From: Candidatus Electrothrix yaqonensis
GTDB lineage: Bacteria; Desulfobacterota; Desulfobulbia; Desulfobulbales; Desulfobulbaceae
Reading direction: 5' to 3'
NCBI GenBank assembly: GCA_047651235.1
Contig: CP178758.1
Span: 510,001-542,000, forward strand
DNA length: 32,000 bases
How positions within the stretch are numbered: the stretch's first letter is position 1; every line of letters begins with the position of its first letter. Both the position numbers and the translations under genes were made by a program. Positions 2 to 31,442 of the stretch are shown one piece after another. Below the pieces are notes generated by a model. It made no database searches. It was not told the DNA's origin and was given only the letters and a program-made list of their open reading frames with translations.

Positions 2-3000
2 GCAGAGACCTCCATCACTGTGCCGGGCATAGAATGCGTGGTGGATACCGGCCTCGCCCGCATTGCCCATTATAATGTACGGGCCGGGACTACCCATCTG
101 CCGGTGGCCCGCGTTTCCCAGGCAAGTTGCGATCAACGGGCAGGCCGTTGCGGTCGGATCGGGCCGGGGCGTTGCATCCGCTTGTACAGCGAGGAGGATT
201 ACCTTGCCCGTGATGAGTTCACCTTACCCGATATCCAGCGTTCCAATCTGGCCGAGGTTATCTTGCAGATGCTCAGTCTTCGCCTGCCTGAGCCGCGCAA
301 TTTCCCCTTTATCGATCCACCTGCCCCCAGGGCGGTCAATGACGGCTTCCGTATTCTCCGGGAACTGGGCGCCCTTGATGGCGAGCACCGGCTCACCCGG
401 CAAGGCCGGATCATGGCTCGCCTGCCTCTGGACCCGCGTATTTCCCGGATGATCATCGAGGGTGCGGAGCTGGGTGTGCTCCGGGAAACCGCGATCATTG
501 CTGCGGCCCTGGCCATTCAGGATCCCCGTGTTCAACCGCCGGACAAGCTGGAAAAAGCCCGGCAGGCCCATCGGGCCTTTAACTATCCCGGCTCGGATGT
601 CATGACCCTGGTGAATATCTGGGATGCCTGTAGGGGCGAATCCCTGTGTTCGCCCGGATCATCTGATAAAAGGCAGACATGGGGATCTGCCCCTACACCG
701 TCCGCAGGGCAGCTCCGCCGCTTTTGCGAGGCCAATTTTTGCTCTTGGCAACGGATGCGGGAATGGTTTGATATCTACGAGCAGATTCTCCGTATCCTCA
801 GGCAGCATAAGGAGTTTGCCTCGGCCTTGGATTGTATGGATGAATCGGGTGAGGGGCCGGGAGATGCCACATCGGACCGTAGGGGCAGACCTATGTGTCT
901 GCCCAATATGTATAGGGCGAACACGCAGATTCGCCCCTACAGTCAATCGGATGATTCCACAGGGGCAAAGCAGGGTACAACGCAGGCACCCCCTACCGCC
1001 CCAGCTCTGGTCCATCAGGCCCTGACCGCAGGTTTCCTCCGCAACATCGCCCTGCGCAAGGAAAAGAATACCTACCAGATCAGCGGCAACCGGGAGGCCA
1101 TGCTCTTTCCCGGTTCCGGCCTCTATAACAAGGGCGGACAGTGGATCGTGGCAGCGGATTTTGTCCACACCTCGCAGCTCTTTGCCCGCATGGCCGCCAC
1201 GATAGAGGTAGACTGGCTGGAACGTCTGGGTGGCGACCTGTGCAAGCGTTCGTATTCCGATCCACATTGGCAGAAAAAGTCCGGCCAGGTCACGGCCCTG
1301 GAAAAGGTGACCCTGTTCGGCCTGGTCATTGCCGCAGACCGGCGGGTGAACTACGGTCTTCTTAGCAAGAAGACAGCGGAGGAGGCCAAGGATATCTTTA
1401 TTCGGGAGGCCTTAATCCCTGGCGAACTCAGGGGGAAATATCCCTTTCTCGAACATAACCTGGCCCTGGTCCGGCAGCAGGAAGAGCTGGAGGAACGTCT
1501 GCGCAGGCGCGGTATCATGACTGATGAGCAGGTGCTGCACGACTTCTACGATCAGCGTCTGGGGCTGGTGTACGATCGTTTTACCCTCAATCGCTTTCTC
1601 AGCAAGAAGCGGAAACAGGTGAAGTCTGGTGAAAAGGCGGACGGCTTTCTTTGGATGACAGAAAAGGATCTCCGGCAAAGCCAACCGGAAAGTGATGAGC
1701 TGTATCGCTTTCCGAAAACCCTGACCAGTCCCCAGGGCGAGCTGCGCCTCCATTATGTCTTTCGCCCCGGCAAAGAGGAGGACGGTGTGACCGTGGATAT
1801 CCCGGCTTCCTGCTGCCCGCCCCTGTCACCGAACCTGTTTGAGTGGCTGGTGCCCGGTCTGCTGGAAGAAAAGGTGGTGGCCCTGCTCAAGGGCTTGCCC
1901 AAACGTCTGCGCAGGCTCTTTGTTCCCCTGCCGGAAACAGCGGCCCAGCTCATGGACGGCCTGGATCTCTATCAGGGCTCTTTGTACCCGGCCTTGGAGC
2001 GTCTTCTCCTCCGTCGCTTCCAGGTCACCATAACACGGGCGGATTGGCAGTTGGACAATCTCCCGCTCCATCTTCGCATGCGTTTTCGTCTCTGCGATGA
2101 GCAGGGAAAGGCCCTGCATTATACGCGTGATTTCCAAGAACTTGCCCGGCATTGCAACCCGGTTCAGCAGGCAATCCAGGGAGGGCAGGGGAGCAAGGCC
2201 GAAGACCTGCCTATCAGAAAGGATATCCAGTCCTGGGATTTTGCCGAGGCTCCGCAGCCCCTGCCGGTACGGGATCAACAGAACCGGGTGACGGGTCTCT
2301 ACTATCCGGCCTTGCTTCTGGAACAGGGCAAGGGGCCGGAGCAGCAGCTCTGCCTGAAGTACATCGCTGATGCCGCGCAAGCCCAAGCGCAGAATAAGGA
2401 AGGACTTCGTTTTTTGTATAGCAAGGTCTTTAATAAGGAACTCAAAATTATAACCAAGGAGTGTAAGGCTGCGGTATCCGGCCATACTGCCTCCTGGCTG
2501 GCCCTGGGCCTCAAGGCCGGGGCCGGAGAGACCAAGACCCTGCTGCTGCACTGCATCCTGGACGATCTCTTTCAGATTGACGGGGAACTGCCGGATAAGA
2601 CCAGTTTTGAGCAGGTTATGCAGGAGCTCCGCAGCCAGGGGATAACCCGGCTGGCACGGGAGCAGCTTCATCAGGTATTGGAACTGCTGGCGGAACGCCG
2701 CAAGACCCAGGTTGCCCTCACCCAGAGCAGACAGCGGGCTGGCAAGAGCCGGAGTGCAGATCAGGCCCGGTTTGTCGAGTATCAGGAGCTCCTTGAGCGA
2801 TTGGTTCCTGCGGGTTTTCTTGCTCACTTTGCGCCTTCAGAGGCGGGTAACAGGAAACGTTGGTTGCAGGCTCTGGCAAAACGAATAGAACGGGCAGAGC
2901 ATAGTCCGCATAAGGATGCGGACAAGGCGAAACGGGTTCAGCCCTTTGCCGAACATCTGCGTCAGCTGGAAAGAAAAGAGGCGGAGCAGAAGGCCGGTGG

Positions 3001-3169
3001 AAGCATTGCCCTCCCGTGCCGGGAGGCCGTGGCACTGTATCGCCGGATGGTGGAGGAATTTCGTGTCTCGGTCTTTGCCCCGGAGATCGGTACGGCCATG
3101 CCGGTCTCAGAGAAACGCTTGAAGCAGCAGTGGCAGCTTGTGGAGGAGAGCTGCAGGAGGGTGGAGTGA
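2..3169 (+). CDS. hrpA: ATP-dependent RNA helicase HrpA, C-terminal ~1055 aa (5' end lies off-window)
   Basis: The ORF is open to the window edge (codons AETSIT precede the listed start). The translation follows E. coli HrpA by eye, from AETS(I/L)TVPGI through the HA2/OB region (LFPGSGL, SDPHWQKKSGQV, DGVTVDIP, LPKRLRRLFVP) to the C-terminal EEFRVSVFAPEIGT. It carries two REP-derived in-frame insertions, listed separately. Confidence 0.9.
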   Translation, partial: AETSITVPGIECVVDTGLARIAHYNVRAGTTHLPVARVSQASCDQRAGRCGRIGPGRCIRLYSEEDYLARDEFTLPDIQRSNLAEVILQMLSLRLPEPRNFPFIDPPAPRAVNDGFRILRELGALDGEHRLTRQGRIMARLPLDPRISRMIIEGAELGVLRETAIIAAALAIQDPRVQPPDKLEKARQAHRAFNYPGSDVMTLVNIWDACRGESLCSPGSSDKRQTWGSAPTPSAGQLRRFCEANFCSWQRMREWFDIYEQILRILRQHKEFASALDCMDESGEGPGDATSDRRGRPMCLPNMYRANTQIRPYSQSDDSTGAKQGTTQAPPTAPALVHQALTAGFLRNIALRKEKNTYQISGNREAMLFPGSGLYNKGGQWIVAADFVHTSQLFARMAATIEVDWLERLGGDLCKRSYSDPHWQKKSGQVTALEKVTLFGLVIAADRRVNYGLLSKKTAEEAKDIFIREALIPGELRGKYPFLEHNLALVRQQEELEERLRRRGIMTDEQVLHDFYDQRLGLVYDRFTLNRFLSKKRKQVKSGEKADGFLWMTEKDLRQSQPESDELYRFPKTLTSPQGELRLHYVFRPGKEEDGVTVDIPASCCPPLSPNLFEWLVPGLLEEKVVALLKGLPKRLRRLFVPLPETAAQLMDGLDLYQGSLYPALERLLLRRFQVTITRADWQLDNLPLHLRMRFRLCDEQGKALHYTRDFQELARHCNPVQQAIQGGQGSKAEDLPIRKDIQSWDFAEAPQPLPVRDQQNRVTGLYYPALLLEQGKGPEQQLCLKYIADAAQAQAQNKEGLRFLYSKVFNKELKIITKECKAAVSGHTASWLALGLKAGAGETKTLLLHCILDDLFQIDGELPDKTSFEQVMQELRSQGITRLAREQLHQVLELLAERRKTQVALTQSRQRAGKSRSADQARFVEYQELLERLVPAGFLAHFAPSEAGNRKRWLQALAKRIERAEHSPHKDADKAKRVQPFAEHLRQLERKEAEQKAGGSIALPCREAVALYRRMVEEFRVSVFAPEIGTAMPVSEKRLKQQWQLVEESCRRVE
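630..696. repeat. REP inverted doublet (REPIN-like) inside hrpA coding sequence
   Basis: gtaggggcgaatccctgtgttcgccc (630-655) and ggcagacatggggatctgcccctac (672-696) are two hairpin units in inverted orientation. Each has a GTAGGGGC head and a self-complementary stem (gggcgaa/ttcgccc and ggcaga/tctgcc). Translated in frame as ...CRGESLCSPGSSDKRQTWGSAPTPS... Confidence 0.8.
879..940. repeat. REP inverted doublet (REPIN-like) inside hrpA coding sequence
   Basis: gtaggggcagacctatgtgtctgccc (879-904) is identical to the 26-mer at 30806-30831. It is paired with gggcgaacacgcagattcgcccctac (915-940) in inverted orientation. Translated in frame as ...RRGRPMCLPNMYRANTQIRPYS... Confidence 0.85.
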
Positions 3170-3939: not shown

Positions 3940-4115
3940 AAGTACCACCTGCTTTCAGGTGTCCGTTTGACCACGGATGAAAAGGGAACCCGGTGTGAAT
4001 CCGGGACGGGCCCGCCGCTGTAACCGGGGACGAATCCGCATGATGTCACTGTCTGTTGTGCAGACGGGAAGGCGCGGAGGAGGATGAGCCGGGAGTCAGA
4101 AAACCTGCCTGAGAA
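3940..4115 (+). promoter_or_regulatory. cobalamin (B12) riboswitch aptamer
   Basis: Conserved core strings are present: gaaaagggaacccggtgtgaatccgggacgggcccgccgctgtaaccgggga, gtcactg...gggaaggcg, and a B12-box-like gccgggagtcagaaaacctgcc. It lies directly upstream of cbiK. Boundaries are approximate. Confidence 0.85.
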
Positions 4116-4176
4116 AATATGTTCAGCCTCCTCGGCAAAGGGGCGGACAAAGCGGACATCTGGGTACAGAAGGGAT

Positions 4177-4217
4177 ATCCCGGATCAATTTGTATGAATT
4201 GGTCCGGGATTTTTTTT
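4177..4217 (+). terminator. intrinsic terminator hairpin, probable riboswitch expression platform
   Basis: atcccgga (4177-4184) pairs with tccgggat (4203-4210) and is followed by a run of T through 4217. It sits between the aptamer and the cbiK RBS. Confidence 0.6.
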
Positions 4218-4272
4218 GATGCCCGCCGCATCAGCGTATCAGCTCCCGGACCGGAACCAAAGGAGGTATCCT

Positions 4273-5274
4273 ATGCAGTTGCGTTCTGTTGTTCGGTTTT
4301 TTGTTATTTTCGTTCTTGTGTTGATCAGCGCAACAACTGTCTGTGCAAGTGAGGGGTGGAAGGTGGAGCATAAAAACGCCATTGTTCTTGCCATGTTCGG
4401 TACAACGGTAGAGCCAGCCCTGCAGGGGCTGCTCAACATCCGCGCCAAAATGATGGAAAAATTTCCGGAGACCCCGGTGAAGATCGCCTTCACTTCCAAT
4501 ATTATCCGTAAAATATGGCAGAAGCGGGCTGATGATCCTGCCTACCGCAAGGCCCACCCGGAAATTCCGGAAGACGTACTCCACGTCAAAACCGTGCTGG
4601 CCACCATTGCCGACCTGCAGGATCAGGGCTATGACACCATTGTCCTCCAGCCCACCCATATTGCTATGGGCGAGGAATTTCTTGATCTCAGCACCTACGT
4701 GGACAGCCTTATGCGCATGGGCACGGTCAAAAAGAAAAAGTACAAGCCGTTCCATAAAGTGGTGCTGGGCCGGCCTGCCCTGGGCACCTATGGACTGGCC
4801 CATCCCTATGCCGAAGATGTGACGGCTGCCGCTGAGGCACTGGCTGCTGACGCGAAAATGGCGGCAGAGGAAAGGGCGGCGCTGGTCTACATGGGCCACG
4901 GCAATGAACATTTTCCGTCAGGAGGTTCGTATCTTGAACTGGCCGACCGGATGCGGGAGCTGTATCCGGAGGTGGTGACCCTGATCGGCAATGTGGAGGG
5001 ATTTCCCTCGCTTGAGGATGTGATGGACAAGCTGAAGCTGCGCGGTGTGAAAAAGGTGCTGCTCAAACCCTGCATGGTGGTGGCCGGAGATCATGCCATG
5101 AATGATATGGCGGGAACAGACCCGGAAGAGCCGTCTTGGCAGATGCTGCTGGAAAAGGAAGGTTTTGAGGTTGTGCCGGTGAAACGCGGTCTTGGCGAAT
5201 CGGATGCCTTTGCGGAAATTTTTGTCAACCATGCCGCTGATGCTGCCGCAGATGCGGAGATTGTGCTGAAGTAG
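4273..5274 (+). CDS. cbiK: sirohydrochlorin cobaltochelatase CbiK family, with N-terminal signal peptide (periplasmic CbiK-P type)
   Basis: Start chosen at ATG 4273, behind the RBS aaaggagg. The N-terminus MQLRSVVRFFVIFVLVLISATTVCASE looks like a signal peptide. The body (AIVLAMFGTT..., VLQPTHIAMGEEF, LVYMGHGNEH, LKPCMVVAGDHA) matches the CbiK/anaerobic chelatase pattern. Confidence 0.8.
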   Translation: MQLRSVVRFFVIFVLVLISATTVCASEGWKVEHKNAIVLAMFGTTVEPALQGLLNIRAKMMEKFPETPVKIAFTSNIIRKIWQKRADDPAYRKAHPEIPEDVLHVKTVLATIADLQDQGYDTIVLQPTHIAMGEEFLDLSTYVDSLMRMGTVKKKKYKPFHKVVLGRPALGTYGLAHPYAEDVTAAAEALAADAKMAAEERAALVYMGHGNEHFPSGGSYLELADRMRELYPEVVTLIGNVEGFPSLEDVMDKLKLRGVKKVLLKPCMVVAGDHAMNDMAGTDPEEPSWQMLLEKEGFEVVPVKRGLGESDAFAEIFVNHAADAAADAEIVLK

Positions 5275-10766: not shown

Positions 10767-11783
10767 CTAAAAATGATTGCCTGATGTACAGCGAGTCATA
10801 CACATATTTCCGCACATCGGCGGCTTGCCAGCACAGTTTCTGCTGCATATTTTCTGACAGCATGCGTCTTTTTCAAGATCACCTGTCACCGGATTTCTGA
10901 GCTTCAATGTTTCTGAATTCCGTGTAATATCGGCAGCACATAGATTTTTTTGACCTTTTGCTCTGCCGGTGAAAAATGCAGAGCCGGAAACAGTGACTGT
11001 TTCTCCTGCTTTAAAATCAAACAGCTCTGAACATTGCTTTGTCAGCTGTTCGGGAAACACATGAATGACAACAGACTGTTTACCGTCGGTCTCCACGTCG
11101 AGATGCAGTCCGCTCAGGCCGGTACCCGGCGGGGTTCTGTATTCAGCCTTCCTGATCTCCCCGGTCATTTCCATAAGAGGTGTTGTCCAGGGCTTGCCGC
11201 ATGACCCTCTGGTCGGCGGCTTGGTCTGTCTTTCCGCCTGCTCTTCCGCAGAATCTTCGGGTTCGGTATCGATCGAAGGAACAGCCTCTTCTTTTTCAGC
11301 GGAGGACGGTTCTTCTGCGTCAACCTGCTCTTCTCCGGCAACCGGACTGTCCGTTACTCCGGGCGATGTCAGCGTAACGGCTTCACCCGCTTCATCCGGG
11401 TCATCCTGGAGAGGGCTCTCCTCTTTAATATTCTGTTCAGGGGCCAGCTCTGTATCTGAAGGTACCGGAGTCTTTTCGGCACCAGTATCGGGCTGTATTG
11501 TTTCTTCTTTTTCTCCTGATCCGTTTTCGTGATCTGCGGGGCTGGACGGTGTCGGTGGAGTTTTCTTCTTATCGTTGGGTTGTCCGCTCGGTTTTGAGCC
11601 AGTGTCTTTAGTTCCTTTACCGGAATTCGTGCCAACAGGAGGTACAGGTACTACTTCTTTTAAAGGCGCTGTGTTATAAAGGAAGATAAGCAGTGCAAGC
11701 AGGAGGAGAATAGCTGTAACTATATAACAAACCGGGAGAACGATGAATTCTGCAAGAAGAGAAAGCAGGCTGTTTCGTTTCAT
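10767..11783 (-). CDS. hypothetical membrane-anchored protein with long acidic/Pro/Thr-rich linker and Cys-rich tail
   Basis: N-terminal TM helix (LLAEFIVLPVCYIVTAILLLLALLIFLY), roughly 170 aa of low-complexity P/E/T/S sequence, a globular C-terminal part (GLHLDVETDGKQSVVIHVFPEQL...GETVTVSG), and the tail CCQKICSRNCAGKPPMCGNMCMTRC. No family recognised. Confidence 0.6.
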   Translation of the reverse strand: MKRNSLLSLLAEFIVLPVCYIVTAILLLLALLIFLYNTAPLKEVVPVPPVGTNSGKGTKDTGSKPSGQPNDKKKTPPTPSSPADHENGSGEKEETIQPDTGAEKTPVPSDTELAPEQNIKEESPLQDDPDEAGEAVTLTSPGVTDSPVAGEEQVDAEEPSSAEKEEAVPSIDTEPEDSAEEQAERQTKPPTRGSCGKPWTTPLMEMTGEIRKAEYRTPPGTGLSGLHLDVETDGKQSVVIHVFPEQLTKQCSELFDFKAGETVTVSGSAFFTGRAKGQKNLCAADITRNSETLKLRNPVTGDLEKDACCQKICSRNCAGKPPMCGNMCMTRCTSGNHF

Positions 11784-12200: not shown

Positions 12201-12788
12201 ATGCTCACTGAACAGCAGGGAAAAGTACTGGTCCGCCTGGCCCGGCAGACTCTTGAAAAAGAACTCGGCCGACCGCTCTCCGCTCCTGTTACGGAGCAGG
12301 ATCTGGACGATTCTGAGCTGCGGCAGCACCGGGGCGTCTTTGTCACCCTGAAACTGCACGGAGTGCTGCGGGGCTGTATCGGCAGCCTGCTGGGCGTGGA
12401 GCCGATCCTTGACGGGGTGCGCCGACATGCGGTCAATGCTGCGCTGCACGACCGGCGTTTCCCTGTGCTGACCGCAGATGAGCTGCCCCGGGTGCGGATT
12501 GAGGTCTCTGTGCTCACCCCGCCGCAGAACGTGAAGTACACCGATGGTGCCGATCTGCTCTGTCAGCTGCGTCCGGGAATTGACGGGGTGATCCTGAAAG
12601 TGCCCGGCGGCCCCGGAGCCACCTTTCTCCCTCAGGTCTGGGAAGAGCTGCCGGAACCGGAAAACTTTCTGGAGCAGCTCTGCCGCAAGGCCGGACTGCC
12701 CGAAGACAGCTGGCAGAGCGGCGAGCTGACTGTGCAGTCCTATCAGGTCCGTCACTTTGACGAACAGGAATTGCAGGAGCAATTATGA
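12201..12788 (+). CDS. AMMECR1 domain protein (AmmeMemoRadiSam system protein A-like)
   Basis: RGVFVTLKLHGVLRGCIGSL...AVNAALHDRRFPVLTADELPRVRIEVSVLTPP...PGIDGVIL. Contains the diagnostic LRGCIG motif. Confidence 0.85.
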   Translation: MLTEQQGKVLVRLARQTLEKELGRPLSAPVTEQDLDDSELRQHRGVFVTLKLHGVLRGCIGSLLGVEPILDGVRRHAVNAALHDRRFPVLTADELPRVRIEVSVLTPPQNVKYTDGADLLCQLRPGIDGVILKVPGGPGATFLPQVWEELPEPENFLEQLCRKAGLPEDSWQSGELTVQSYQVRHFDEQELQEQL

Positions 12789-13421: not shown

Positions 13422-14426
13422 ATGCCTGATTTCCGGAATATCTGTGAGCAGGTGAAAAACGGCGTGGCCATTGACCGCCGTACCGCCTGTGAAATTGCCC
13501 GTTATGCTGATCCGCACTCCCTCTGGGCTGCTGCCGACGCAGTGCGCCGCGACTTTACGGGCGATCAGTTCCACCTCTGCTCCATCATCAATGCCCGCAG
13601 CGGCAACTGCAGCGAAAACTGCCGTTTCTGTGCTCAATCTGCCCGTTATCAGACCGGCGCACCCGCCTATGCGCTGATTGACGACAAGGAGGCCATGACC
13701 ATTGCCCTGGACAATGATGCCCACAGTGTGCATCGGCTTTCCCTGGTCACGAGCGGCCATTCCGTGGACGCGGAATCTCTGGATCAGCTGATCGGGCTGT
13801 ATGCACAGATCAGGAAGCAGACAGATATGGGGTTCTGTGCTTCAATGGGGTTTCTTGATCAGGAGCGGGCAGAACGGCTGCGGGCTGCCGGAGTCAGCCG
13901 CTACCACTGTAATCTGGAGACCAATAAACAGCGTTTTGCCGAGGTTTGTACCACCCACACTTGGCAGGAAAAGGTGGACACCCTGCAGATTGCTGCAGAA
14001 ACAGGCATGTCTGTCTGCTCCGGCGGCATCATCGGGATGGGCGAAACCATGAACGACCGGATTGAACTTGCCCTCGAACTACGCCAGCTCGGTGTCAAAT
14101 CGATTCCCATTAATATTTTGACCCCCATTTCCGGTACTCCCTTTGCCGAGCTGGAACCGCTGCCTGTGCAGGAAGTGCTGACCACCATTGCCCTGTTTCG
14201 CTTCATCAAGCCGGATGCGGTAATCCGCATTGCCGGAGGCAGACAGCAGTTAGGGGCTGATCAGTACTGCTGCTTTGCGGCCGGGGCCAACGGCGCCATT
14301 GTCGGCAACTACCTGACCACAACGGGCAGCTCTGTTGCTGAGGATCTTGCCGCCCTGCGGGAGATGGGCTTTACGGTTGCACAGCCCTGTTCGGTAAATT
14401 CGGAGTCTCCTGTAATATCGGGCTAA
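13422..14426 (+). CDS. bioB: biotin synthase (radical SAM)
   Basis: LCSIINARSGNCSENCRFCAQSARY (CxxxCxxC), RLSLVTSG, YHCNLET, VCSGGIIGMGET and IRIAGGR. ATG 13422 is preferred because it lies just after the stop of the upstream gene. Confidence 0.85.
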   Translation: MPDFRNICEQVKNGVAIDRRTACEIARYADPHSLWAAADAVRRDFTGDQFHLCSIINARSGNCSENCRFCAQSARYQTGAPAYALIDDKEAMTIALDNDAHSVHRLSLVTSGHSVDAESLDQLIGLYAQIRKQTDMGFCASMGFLDQERAERLRAAGVSRYHCNLETNKQRFAEVCTTHTWQEKVDTLQIAAETGMSVCSGGIIGMGETMNDRIELALELRQLGVKSIPINILTPISGTPFAELEPLPVQEVLTTIALFRFIKPDAVIRIAGGRQQLGADQYCCFAAGANGAIVGNYLTTTGSSVAEDLAALREMGFTVAQPCSVNSESPVISG

Positions 14427-29696: not shown

Positions 29697-29772
29697 TACA
29701 TATCGTGACAAAATAGGCCCCGGCCTGTGTGTAATCATAATTGCGCAGCCGGCTGGAGCGGCAGTGATGCTG
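29697..29772 (-). pseudogene. 5' fragment of a second RAYT gene
   Basis: The minus-strand translation ...HHCRSSRLRNYDYTQAGAYFVTICIS* parallels HHRRSIRLRNYDYTRAGAYFVTICV of the intact RAYT. The nucleotide strings are alignable by eye (ccccggcctgtgtgtaatcataattgcgcag versus ccccggcccgtgtgtaatcataattacgcag). Confidence 0.6.
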
Positions 29773-29825: not shown

Positions 29826-30239
29826 ATGGATACAATCATTATGGACACCAATATACTTTTTTCAGGGCTTTATTCCTCATCAGGGGCATCGTATCAAATA
29901 TTAAGATGCATTGATACCGGCAGAATAATACCTGTTATATCAACTACGCTCCTTTTTGAATACGAAGATGTTCTAAAACGGAAACAAAAGGAATTATGGT
30001 TATCTGACAACGAGATTGAGGTAGTTCTTGACAATATCTGCGCCCTCAGCAAATTTCAAAAAATATATTTTTTGTGGCGACCGTACCTGAAAGACCCGAA
30101 AGATGATCATGTCCTTGAGGTGGCTGTGGCATCAAAAACAAGAATAATCGTCACCCATAATATGAAAGATTTTAGAGGGGTTGATAAATTCGGCGTGACT
30201 GCGTTACGCCCCGGAAAATTATTGGAGGCAATACAATGA
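29826..30239 (+). CDS. PIN-domain toxin (PIN_3 / TIGR00305-like)
   Basis: MDTNILFSGL...ISTTLLFEYEDVL...KDPKDDHVLEVAVASKTRIIVTHNMKDF carries the acidic PIN residues in the expected order. AT-rich. Confidence 0.8.
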   Translation: MDTIIMDTNILFSGLYSSSGASYQILRCIDTGRIIPVISTTLLFEYEDVLKRKQKELWLSDNEIEVVLDNICALSKFQKIYFLWRPYLKDPKDDHVLEVAVASKTRIIVTHNMKDFRGVDKFGVTALRPGKLLEAIQ

Positions 30240-30487
30240 GTACACTTAGTTTACGGTTACCAAATTCTATTCATCGTCATATTAAGCAAATAGCAACGCA
30301 AGAAGGTGTATCGATCAATCAGTTTATTTCGACGGCTGTGTCTGAAAAGATTTCCGCCCTTACAACAGAAAATTATCTGGAGCAACGGGCGAAAAAGGCG
30401 GATCGGGCGGCCTTCAGGGGTATATTGGATAAGGTGCCTGATCGGACACCCTTGCCGGGAGATGAGATTATGTCGGAGAATCCATAG
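30236..30487 (+). CDS. ribbon-helix-helix / HicB-like antitoxin
   Basis: LSLRLPNSIHRHIKQIATQEGVSINQFISTAVSEKISAL is an RHH-type N-terminus. The start overlaps the PIN stop (ATGA). Confidence 0.7.
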   Translation: MSTLSLRLPNSIHRHIKQIATQEGVSINQFISTAVSEKISALTTENYLEQRAKKADRAAFRGILDKVPDRTPLPGDEIMSENP

Positions 30488-30507: not shown

Positions 30508-31182
30508 TCACACCATCCACACCTCATAACTTTCATGGCCGTATGCCGGTGAAGGTTCACGGGTTTCACCGGGGAACGGGGGCTGATCAGGATGCAATGC
30601 GTCTTCCTGCCAACGGGACGGGTTATTGCGGATGTATTGGCGGATGCGGTATAATTCTGTTTCGTTGCGGATGACGTGGTCCCAATAATTGCGTTGCCAT
30701 AATTTGCCGGGAAACGGTTGCCAACCGTTTTGTTTGACACCCCGGATATATTCGTTGGTGGTCATTGTTTTGAACCATTGCACGACATCCGACAACGATG
30801 TCCCCGTAGGGGCAGACCTATGTGTCTGCCCTGGTTGAACCTGCCGGGATGGTTGCATATTCGGCGGGCGGACACGGACACGCGGAATATCCGGGCGGAC
30901 ACGCAGGTCCGCCCCTACATTGACCACGATGAAATGAACGTGATTGGGCATACAGACAAATTCATCGCATTCGATCTCGTGGAATTTGTTTTCCAATTCG
31001 GCAAACCATTTTTCCGTCATCCGGCCCGCATCATTCAACCGCATGACCCCGTTGGTGATTCCCCCGAACAGACATTCCCGATGTTGCACACAGATGGTCA
31101 CGAAATAAGCCCCGGCCCGTGTGTAATCATAATTACGCAGGCGGATGGACCGGCGGTGGTGGATGTCAGGGTTGTATGACAT
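30508..31182 (-). CDS. REP-associated tyrosine transposase (RAYT, IS200/IS605-like HUH enzyme) carrying an in-frame REPIN insertion
   Basis: N-terminus RRSIRLRNYDYTRAGAYFVTICV, HUH motif MPNHVHFIV, and C-terminal LWQRNYWDHVIRNETELYRIRQYIRNNP. It is flanked by REP units, and the central 38 aa or so are REP-encoded. Confidence 0.85.
   Translation of the reverse strand: MSYNPDIHHRRSIRLRNYDYTRAGAYFVTICVQHRECLFGGITNGVMRLNDAGRMTEKWFAELENKFHEIECDEFVCMPNHVHFIVVNVGADLRVRPDIPRVRVRPPNMQPSRQVQPGQTHRSAPTGTSLSDVVQWFKTMTTNEYIRGVKQNGWQPFPGKLWQRNYWDHVIRNETELYRIRQYIRNNPSRWQEDALHPDQPPFPGETREPSPAYGHESYEVWMV
30806..30918. repeat. REP inverted doublet (REPIN) inside the RAYT coding sequence
   Basis: gtaggggcagacctatgtgtctgccc (30806-30831) and gggcggacacgcaggtccgcccctac (30893-30918), plus a partial half-unit gggcggacacggacacgcgg (30866-30885). 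The spacer core ggttgaacctgccgggatggt matches that of the REPIN at 31211-31293. Confidence 0.85.
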
Positions 31183-31210: not shown

Positions 31211-31293
31211 GTAGGGGCAGACCTGCGTGTCTGCCCGGTTGGAACGTGCCGGGATGGTGGACAAACCGGGCGGACACAGAGGTCCGCCCCTAC
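31211..31293. repeat. REP inverted doublet (REPIN) ~30 bp upstream of the RAYT start
   Basis: gtaggggcagacctgcgtgtctgccc (31211-31236) and gggcggacacagaggtccgcccctac (31268-31293). The spacer is ggttggaacgtgccgggatggtggacaaacc. Confidence 0.85.
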
Positions 31294-31391
31294 AGGATCG
31301 GCCATGCCCTGATTGATTATCCGGGCAGGGTGCGAACCGGGCATAATCGTTATGGTGCAGGGGGATGGAACGGGTGGTGGGTAATCCCGTT

Positions 31392-31416
31392 GGGGCACGG
31401 CGGGCCGTGCCCTTAC
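31392..31416. repeat. variant single REP unit
   Basis: ggggcacggcgggccgtgcccttac is the reverse complement of gtaagggcacggcccgccgtgcccc. The head is GTAAGGGC and the stem pairs gggcacgg with ccgtgccc. Confidence 0.55.
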
Positions 31417-31442
31417 ATATTCTGGGTTGCGCCTTGCAGGAA

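Follow-up and report, generated by a model that had tools for sequence, protein, structure and literature searches.

hrpA and its repeat-derived segments

This analysis concerns short palindromic hairpins that lie inside hrpA, a conserved helicase gene, in the cable bacterium Candidatus Electrothrix sp. YB6 (strain label YB6 throughout). The stretch of DNA analysed, here called the window, is 32,000 nucleotides (nt) long. At one end it carries the 3′ part of hrpA and towards the other end a RAYT-like gene (RAYT, REP-associated tyrosine transposase). Both loci contain hairpins of the REP (repetitive extragenic palindromic) type, arranged as inverted doublets which may form a single long hairpin (REPINs). 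The features on which the argument rests are the following:

2-3169, forward strand: the 3′ 1055 codons of hrpA, one stop-free frame that runs off the left window edge
630-696: site 1 REPIN doublet in hrpA, with left REP 630-655, spacer 656-670 and right REP 671-696 (inverted)
879-940: site 2 REP doublet in hrpA, with left REP 879-904, a 10-nt spacer and right REP 915-940 (inverted)
941-996: 56 extra nt specific to YB6, delimited by alignment to the orthologues L201, L202 and L006, with a second CCCCTAC at the end
30508-31182, reverse strand: RAYT-like Y1 (HUH) transposase gene of 224 amino acids, recognised by Pfam Y1_Tnp and its motifs
30806-30918: REPIN doublet within the RAYT open reading frame (ORF), in frame and directly after the HUH motif (VGADLRVRP...GQTHRSAPT)
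31211-31293: REPIN doublet outside the RAYT ORF, 28 nt upstream of its start codon

The product of the window hrpA is 100% identical to a full-length protein of 1336 amino acids (P0001). Its Pfam domains are HA2_N, HA2_C (the ratchet), OB_NTP_bind and DUF3418. It scores 755.4 with the HrpA equivalog model TIGR01967, above the cutoff of 722.75, and can be aligned to the E. coli HrpA structures 8po6 and 6zww, which places it within HrpA. Outside the inserts, the ratio of nonsynonymous to synonymous divergence (dN/dS) is 0.13 between YB6 and E. gigas (L001) and 0.10 between YB6 and L002, a genome treated as Electrothrix-like (85% identity); the corresponding dS values are 0.70 and 0.61. The ORF is intact in every full-length hrpA orthologue. 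On these grounds hrpA is a functional gene under purifying selection and no pseudogene. The proposal of in-frame repeats, made in a preliminary description of this DNA, therefore survives the objection that the gene might be dead, and the frame indeed translates across both inserts without a stop, as that description had stated.

Frame breaks were seen in two other contigs. In the E. aarhusensis MCF contig (L005) the hrpA frame is broken (~883), and the E. marina contig (L004) has stop codons near the hrpA 3′ end. Since a second E. aarhusensis assembly encodes an intact HrpA of 1314 amino acids (P0008), both breaks are probably errors in metagenome-assembled genomes (MAGs).

The repeat units

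The REP unit is a 26-nt hairpin built from GTAG, GGGC-RRRY, a 6-nt loop and the complementary arm, giving an 8-bp stem. Its GTAG head, the octamer GTAGGGGC, is present in all four hrpA units and in all four units of the RAYT locus. The window holds nine copies of this octamer where 0.84 are expected, a roughly 10-fold enrichment which none of 100 shuffled sequences reached. The copies form inverted pairs in hrpA (630(+)/689(-) and 879(+)/933(-)) and at the RAYT locus (30806(+)/30911(-) and 31211(+)/31286(-)), and one stands alone at 26007. The site 2 left unit is the same 26-mer, letter for letter, as 30806-30831 (family D1), which agrees with what the preliminary description had reported.

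Single-strand folding compared with shuffled sequences gave z = -3.5 for 626-700 and z = -4.8 for 875-944 in hrpA, and z = -3.8 for 30806-30918 and z = -5.9 for 31211-31293 at the RAYT locus. A long-hairpin fold is predicted in three of the four inverted pairs. Site 1 folds as one long hairpin and site 2 as two hairpins. Together, the head count, the shared 26-mer and the folds confirm that 630-696 and 879-940 are inverted pairs of the hairpin family found at the RAYT locus. The idea that the hairpins flank the RAYT gene holds for 31211-31293, which lies upstream; 30806-30918 lies inside the RAYT ORF. With a short palindromic hairpin, a GTAG head, inverted doublets and association with a RAYT, the units are REPs/REPINs of the GTAG type. 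They depart from that class in location, as REPs are defined as extragenic whereas 630-696 and 879-940 lie inside hrpA and 30806-30918 inside the RAYT gene.

A REP unit is stop-free in five of six frames. In shuffled 26-mers of equal composition, 0.88 of the frames are open, so base composition alone accounts for the openness and a special adaptation of the REPs to being stop-free is rejected. General GC-richness, which leaves most frames open, is also the only point in favour of regarding the palindromes as chance features of native hrpA, as an assembly artefact or as part of a dead gene. We take the probability of this explanation to be negligible: no shuffle attained the observed head count, the same inserts recur in independent assemblies of eight other Electrothrix genomes, insert-free outgroups exist, and the gene is intact with a low dN/dS.

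Promoter or intrinsic terminator signals were sought at the hrpA inserts and none was found; a role of the inserts as internal promoter or intrinsic terminator is rejected on this account.

Location of the inserts in HrpA

Site 1 falls within a ratchet-domain (HA2_C) loop and is translated as (C)RGESLCSPGSSDKRQTWGSAPT. Compared with the E. coli HrpA structures, it adds 15 amino acids after the helix ending ...VNLWNYLGEQ. Site 2 lies in the linker between ratchet and OB domain. Its doublet is translated as RGRPMCLPNMYRANTQIRPY, with the right REP read in a frame that differs from that of the left REP, and is directly followed by SQSDDSTGAKQGTTQAPPT, the translation of 941-996. A third, degenerate REP remnant at ~972-996 has the CCCCCTAC end but is only a weak REP-like unit and does not fold significantly (z = 0). 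Relative to E. coli HrpA, site 2 adds about 53 amino acids, query residues 168-231 standing opposite E. coli residues 607-616. The preliminary estimate that this part of the protein exceeds E. coli HrpA by about 50 amino acids was too low; the excess is ~68-69 amino acids, also when measured against insert-free relatives.

The YB6 site 2 aligns with the orthologous doublet of L201, L202 and L006, in which the spacer is 18 nt instead of 10 nt. The spacer shorter by 8 nt puts the right REP of YB6 in another frame, so that it reads RPY instead of APT. Loss of 8 nt and gain of 56 nt amount to a net change of +48 nt, and the frame of hrpA is therefore kept.

Across 35 HrpA loci of many phyla, the segment that contains site 1 is almost always 32-33 amino acids long and the segment that contains site 2 is 33-34, with independent expansions of the latter in several lineages. 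The YB6 segments measure 48 and 87 amino acids. An AlphaFold2 model was made of the first 467 residues; as it covers a fragment (mean pLDDT, the predicted local distance difference test, of 64), it was used solely for the contrast between loops and helices. Whereas the ratchet helices reach a pLDDT of ~90, the value drops to 58-61 at site 1, and residues 287-329 (site 2) are modelled as coil with a pLDDT below 50. Judged from segment lengths and the model, both REP sites are parts of HrpA which are variable in length or poorly ordered. From the translation, tryptic peptides spanning the inserts would include PMCLPNMYR and ANTQIRPYSQSDDSTGAK.

Distribution and age of the inserts

For comparison, 38 HrpA orthologues were aligned as proteins, together with the DNA of 12 orthologues or relatives from other genomes. 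The alignment yielded the insert-free alleles which the preliminary description had proposed to look for. In non-cable Desulfobulbaceae and in the sister lineage P0012, site 1 reads W-D-S-C-K-S-A-M-x-x-G-x-x-P-x-A-G with no insert. The insert-free site 2 linker is 21 amino acids long in most non-cable Desulfobulbaceae and 30 in P0012. Thus P0012, the other aligned Desulfobulbaceae and E. coli HrpA all lack the inserts, and the earlier claim that they are extra relative to related proteins stands.

In a neighbour-joining tree of HrpA with the loops masked, P0012 is sister to a clade of Electrothrix and Electronema. Within this clade, GTAGGGGC...GCCCCTAC is found at site 1 in every cable-bacterium HrpA examined, and the codons TGT-AGG-GGC ... 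GCC-CCT-ACx are shared throughout. Site 2 carries REP material in Electrothrix only, where it is present in all eight genomes with DNA examined; the basal protein P0010 has a short VPT at this place, a possible remnant. Insert lengths are 10-39 amino acids for site 1 and 28-74 for site 2, and a C-RG....C motif is conserved at site 1 in many species. By this phylogenetic spread, the inserts are ancient and inherited across the cable bacteria, not specific to YB6. Site 1 would have been occupied in the ancestor of the cable bacteria and site 2 in the ancestor of Electrothrix.

Interior turnover and stem covariation

Between the same termini, the interiors belong to four REP types which differ by lineage and which match REP types seen intergenically in the same or related genomes:

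Electrothrix, P0013 and P0014: a doublet, left stem GAAC/GTTC and right stem AGAY/RTCT
Electronema halotolerans: one 28-nt perfect palindrome, GTAGGGGCGGTTCACGAACCGCCCCTAC
P0016, P0023 and P0009 (known from protein only): RGEKSFAPT, the would-be translation of the palindrome GTAGGGGCGAAAAATCTTTCGCCCCTAC
L002 and L004, at site 2: GTAGGGGCACGGCATGCCGTGCCCCTAC, translated VGARHAVPLP (L002:10883-10910, L004:3279-3306)

A near-identical copy of the GTAGGGGCGAAAAATCTTTCGCCCCTAC palindrome, with one head mismatch, is intergenic in E. aureum (L205:925-955). Further members of the GTAGGGGCACGGCATGCCGTGCCCCTAC family were noted at position 21418 of L002 and, as a degenerate copy, at window 31391-31417, upstream of the RAYT gene.

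The stems have changed in a paired manner. Among 28 REP units from hrpA of eight genomes, 94% of stem cells are paired, a value equalled by none of 500 shuffles, and both sides have changed in five of the eight stem pairs. The orthologous left REP of site 2 illustrates this: its stem is GAAT/GTTC in L006, AGAC/GTCT in YB6 and L201, and AAAT/GTTT in L202, and the encoded residues accordingly read E..S, R..L and K..L. Counted over the HrpA hits as a whole, the left REP shows the residue pairs E-S (12), R-L (2) and K-L (1) with no mismatched combination, and the right REP T-S (14) and A-P (3) with three mismatched. In E. gigas both sites carry one and the same stem variant, A-P. The preliminary description had asked whether the same amino acids might be encoded by non-palindromic DNA in close orthologues. 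This was found only as decay, at site 1 of L004 and L202; the other lineages keep 7-8 of 8 stem pairs. Decay is also seen in the right arm of site 2 in L002 and L004. Because interiors vary, and because the stem substitutions are compensatory and change amino acids, the comparison points to constraint or renewal at the level of DNA or RNA and not of the peptide.

Could the hairpins be kept in hrpA by selection on the nucleic acid itself, the peptide being the price paid? Such selection might act on an mRNA structure which tunes translation or stability of hrpA, or on master copies or docking sites of the RAYT in a safe harbour. Compensatory changes that preserve stems across species at the expense of amino acids are what it predicts, and 17 of 23 hrpA units retain at least 7 of 8 Watson-Crick pairs despite dS values of 0.6-0.7. 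It would also suit the occurrence of REP material at site 1 in every cable bacterium examined and the small number of extragenic copies in the flanks sampled. However, the decay in L004, L202 and L002 is clear, and four unrelated interiors at the same sites fit overwriting better than a single conserved structure. Furthermore, the stem variants are those common in the REP population at large, which is what replacement from a template would produce, and the inserts are associated with no terminator or promoter signal. We therefore judge selection on the nucleic acid to be unlikely. That the hrpA interiors match REP types present in other parts of these genomes or in related ones speaks for renewal from the genomic pool, though it does not prove it.

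The RAYT gene and its own REPs

The RAYT ORF scores 31.8 with Pfam Y1_Tnp (cutoff 23). With NCBIfam REP_Tyr_transpos it reaches 56.9 and stays below the cutoff of 80, as the match is interrupted by the REP peptides inside the ORF. The protein has the HUH motif (PNHVHF) and the tyrosine motif YIRNNP, is 100% identical to an NCBI protein of YB6, and has homologues named RayT by JGI. A sequence comparison with the PDB gave no usable match. This is the one intact RAYT gene in the 32-kb window. A 72-nt copy of its 5′ end (83% identical) lies at 29698-29769, corresponding to 31090-31161, and a PIN_3/ribbon-helix-helix toxin-antitoxin pair (29826-30487) is located between this fragment and the intact gene.

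At E <= 1e-30 the RAYT family comprises 1,352 clusters at 50% identity. We inspected 268 homologues from many phyla (P0126-P0393). Most have REP-derived peptides in the same loop after the HUH motif, from 1 to ~10 units per carrying homologue (VGADLRVRP / GQTHRSAPT / GEHxGSPL), and few have none; the distance from the HUH motif to WQRNYW spans 44-205 amino acids. DNA hairpins within the ORF were confirmed in three metagenome RAYTs (L156:5600-6187, L187:340-1113 and L188:494-1222). That a RAYT subfamily carries REPs in its own ORF may be relevant to the lasting linkage of RAYTs and REPINs.

The wider REP family and its other host genes

Metagenome contigs were scanned with the pattern GTAGGGGCRRRYCYNNRTGYYYGCCC, which does not enforce complementarity. 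It matched at least 150 times in at least 120 contigs from very diverse environments. The variable stem is fully Watson-Crick paired in 132 of the 150 matches listed, where shuffling gives an expectation of 36.5, and eight of the matches are exact copies of the YB6 26-mer, in unrelated metagenome contigs. The identity of the 26-mer between hrpA and the RAYT locus therefore indicates family membership only, and its use as a sign of recent copying within the genome is rejected.

Long stop-to-stop ORFs span 65 of the 150 matches listed. After Pfam annotation, several of these proved to precede the true start and are thus extragenic. Others are in frame within Pfam domains of unrelated genes (L154:2471-2545 and 12696-12721, L169:5169, L178:454, L109:518, L112:2120 and L118:6051). 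The host proteins are a TolC-like OEP, Cu-oxidase_4, HGD-D, a FAD_binding_2 flavoprotein, RsmG, DUF3987 and a large PD-(D/E)XK protein; the TolC-like OEP contains a doublet, VGADPSVCP...RADTWVRPY. HrpA itself is a host again. The ratchet-to-OB linker of hrpA holds the REP-like hairpin GTAGGGGCAGCCCCCAGTGGCTGCCC in a Desulfobacterales MAG (L017:6535-6560), and REP-like hairpins occur in the same linker in a 'delta proteobacterium' MAG (L038, ~10849-10914) and in Opitutaceae MAGs (L040, L047, ~10802-10873). This suggests that the linker is a recurrent REP host site across phyla. REP copies are few in the ~145 kb of Electrothrix sequence sampled away from hrpA and the RAYT locus.

This wider survey bears on the question whether the insert peptides were co-opted, for instance as flexible cysteine-containing loops which modulate ratchet/OB movement or the binding of partners. 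Long retention in a gene under purifying selection, the conserved site 1 motif with its two cysteines, and the recurrence of REPs in the same HrpA linker in other phyla could all be read in this way. Yet the peptide sequence is free wherever the stem permits and follows pairing, not residue chemistry; insert length varies widely at both sites, the inserts are predicted to be disordered, and the same peptides are also found in other, unrelated proteins and in spurious ORFs between genes. Co-option thus appears very improbable to us. Most likely, the insert peptides have no function and are carried as passengers in disordered loops.

In L202, two intergenic REPIN doublets (14030-14125 and 20390-20485) are bordered on either side by ~17 nt that are identical between them (TTTGTATGCAGGGTGCC ... 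AAATGGGTAAATTTAT), so that the mobile or duplicated unit in that genome exceeds the doublet. A profile of the concatenated 48-residue REP peptide, searched against proteins, returned only five short hypothetical ORFs and missed HrpA itself, and is uninformative. A literature search for REPs in cable bacteria and for REP-derived peptide strings found nothing relevant.

Other features of the window

A cobalamin riboswitch (130 bits) lies at 3940-4126, upstream of an ORF at 4216-5274. A full rRNA operon (16S, two tRNAs, 23S, 5S) occupies 20543-25791, between hrpA and the RAYT locus. Some 215 nt downstream of its 5S gene, just before a convergent ORF, stands a lone, perfect GTAG-headed hairpin, GTAGGGGCGTTTCGCGAAACGCCCC, at 26007-26032 (z = -4.65). 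It has no T-run and is therefore not a canonical terminator.

Origin of the inserts

We consider it likely that two permissive loops on the HrpA surface received REPs and REPINs, non-autonomous partners of the RAYT, which are now read through as extra peptide. In this process, short GTAG-headed hairpins would move by a putative Y1/HUH activity of the RAYT. Selection would have spared only those copies which had the right length and lay in one of the five stop-free frames. Thereafter, the resident GTAGGGGC...GCCCCTAC termini may have acted as a landing pad, within which RAYT activity, gene conversion or deletion mediated by the hairpin replaced, collapsed or lengthened the interiors. Reuse of such a landing pad would explain both the four interiors at the same sites and the loss of 8 nt and gain of 56 nt at site 2 of YB6.

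Several observations weigh against this account in its simplest form. At site 1, the REP material replaces about eight ancestral codons, so there was no clean insertion, and the Electronema loop has exactly the 16 ancestral codons, which simple insertion leaves unexplained. For this site, centre-deletion of a long hairpin, re-targeting of the resident GTAG head and gene conversion may be considered as mechanisms. In addition, the retention of 7-8 of 8 stem pairs in most lineages is unlike neutral decay: at dS values of 0.6-0.7 we estimate that unconstrained stems would have lost about half of their pairs, and either renewal from the genomic REP pool or selection on the hairpin is therefore needed. 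Lastly, hrpA may hold an unusually large share of the REP copies, where a model of random passengers predicts otherwise.

A bolder version can be entertained tentatively. The HrpA loops might be long-lived landing pads, their GTAGGGGC hairpins kept by RAYT renewal or by selection on the hairpin throughout the history of the cable bacteria, and the REP lineage might live habitually inside ORFs, with its master copies in the hypervariable RAYT loop after the HUH motif. If so, base pairing would dictate the amino-acid sequence in part of a conserved enzyme.

Entry of REPs into permissive loops, the account we prefer, would make hrpA a clean, datable case of mobile hairpin DNA that joined a conserved enzyme and has long been retained or renewed there. 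The compensatory stem substitutions mark a stretch of protein that is set by DNA or RNA pairing and not by protein function. There is also a warning for annotation: peptides of the type 'RGEPLCSP...GQTRGSAPT' or 'VGADLRVRP' in bacterial proteins are repeat-derived.

Comparison with known systems

The units resemble described REPIN-RAYT systems (Bertels & Rainey 2011, PMC3116915; Nunvar et al. 2010, PMC2817692) in their inverted doublets, long hairpin and GTAG head, in the presence of a RAYT gene with adjacent REPs, and in long-term vertical persistence. Classical REPINs are extragenic and number hundreds of copies, whereas coding copies are found here and abundance in the sampled sequence looks low. 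A further difference is the doublet inside the RAYT ORF. No description of REPs within a RAYT ORF was found in the RAYT literature checked or by a peptide-string search, which leaves novelty unproven.

Rickettsia palindromic elements (RPEs), reported by Ogata et al. in 2000 as cited in PMC3733652, include RPE-1 of 100-150 bp. Their host is an obligate intracellular bacterium, and we know of no RAYT associated with them. Like the inserts described here, they are in-frame palindromic repeats in conserved genes, located in surface loops and translated as extra peptide. The preliminary description had drawn this parallel, which is apt as to mechanism but not as to family: the window units are not RPEs, since they have a GTAG and not a CGTC head and measure 26 nt, not the 100-150 bp of RPE-1. 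It is the short RPEs that carry the CGTC tag (PMC3733652).

The closest precedent is the survey of Di Nocera et al. (2013, BMC Genomics 14:522, PMC3733652), which distinguishes GTAG and CGTC REP superfamilies and documents intragenic REPs in several species. More than half of the intragenic REPs are dimers or groups encoding 20-30 amino acids, and genes for replication, repair and helicases are frequent hosts. The preliminary description had called the in-frame location a rare fate for REPs. The in-frame REPs are real; they are not unprecedented, as this survey lists many intragenic GTAG REPs. As in hrpA of YB6, these are short hairpins, single or dimeric, in frame, encoding ~8-30 amino acids and residing preferentially in large nucleic-acid enzymes. 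The HrpA of Opitutus terrae (Oter_0009, Additional file 3 of PMC3733652) has two GTAG REPs and thus shares both the host gene and the presence of two separate REP sites. The present finding adds to this published phenomenon a case from a new lineage, with REPs of a different sequence: the family is GTAGGGGC-RRRY...YYYG-CCC and the phylum Desulfobacterota. Beyond the survey, the cable bacteria allow the inserts to be followed across two genera, through the turnover of their interiors and the compensatory changes of their stems.

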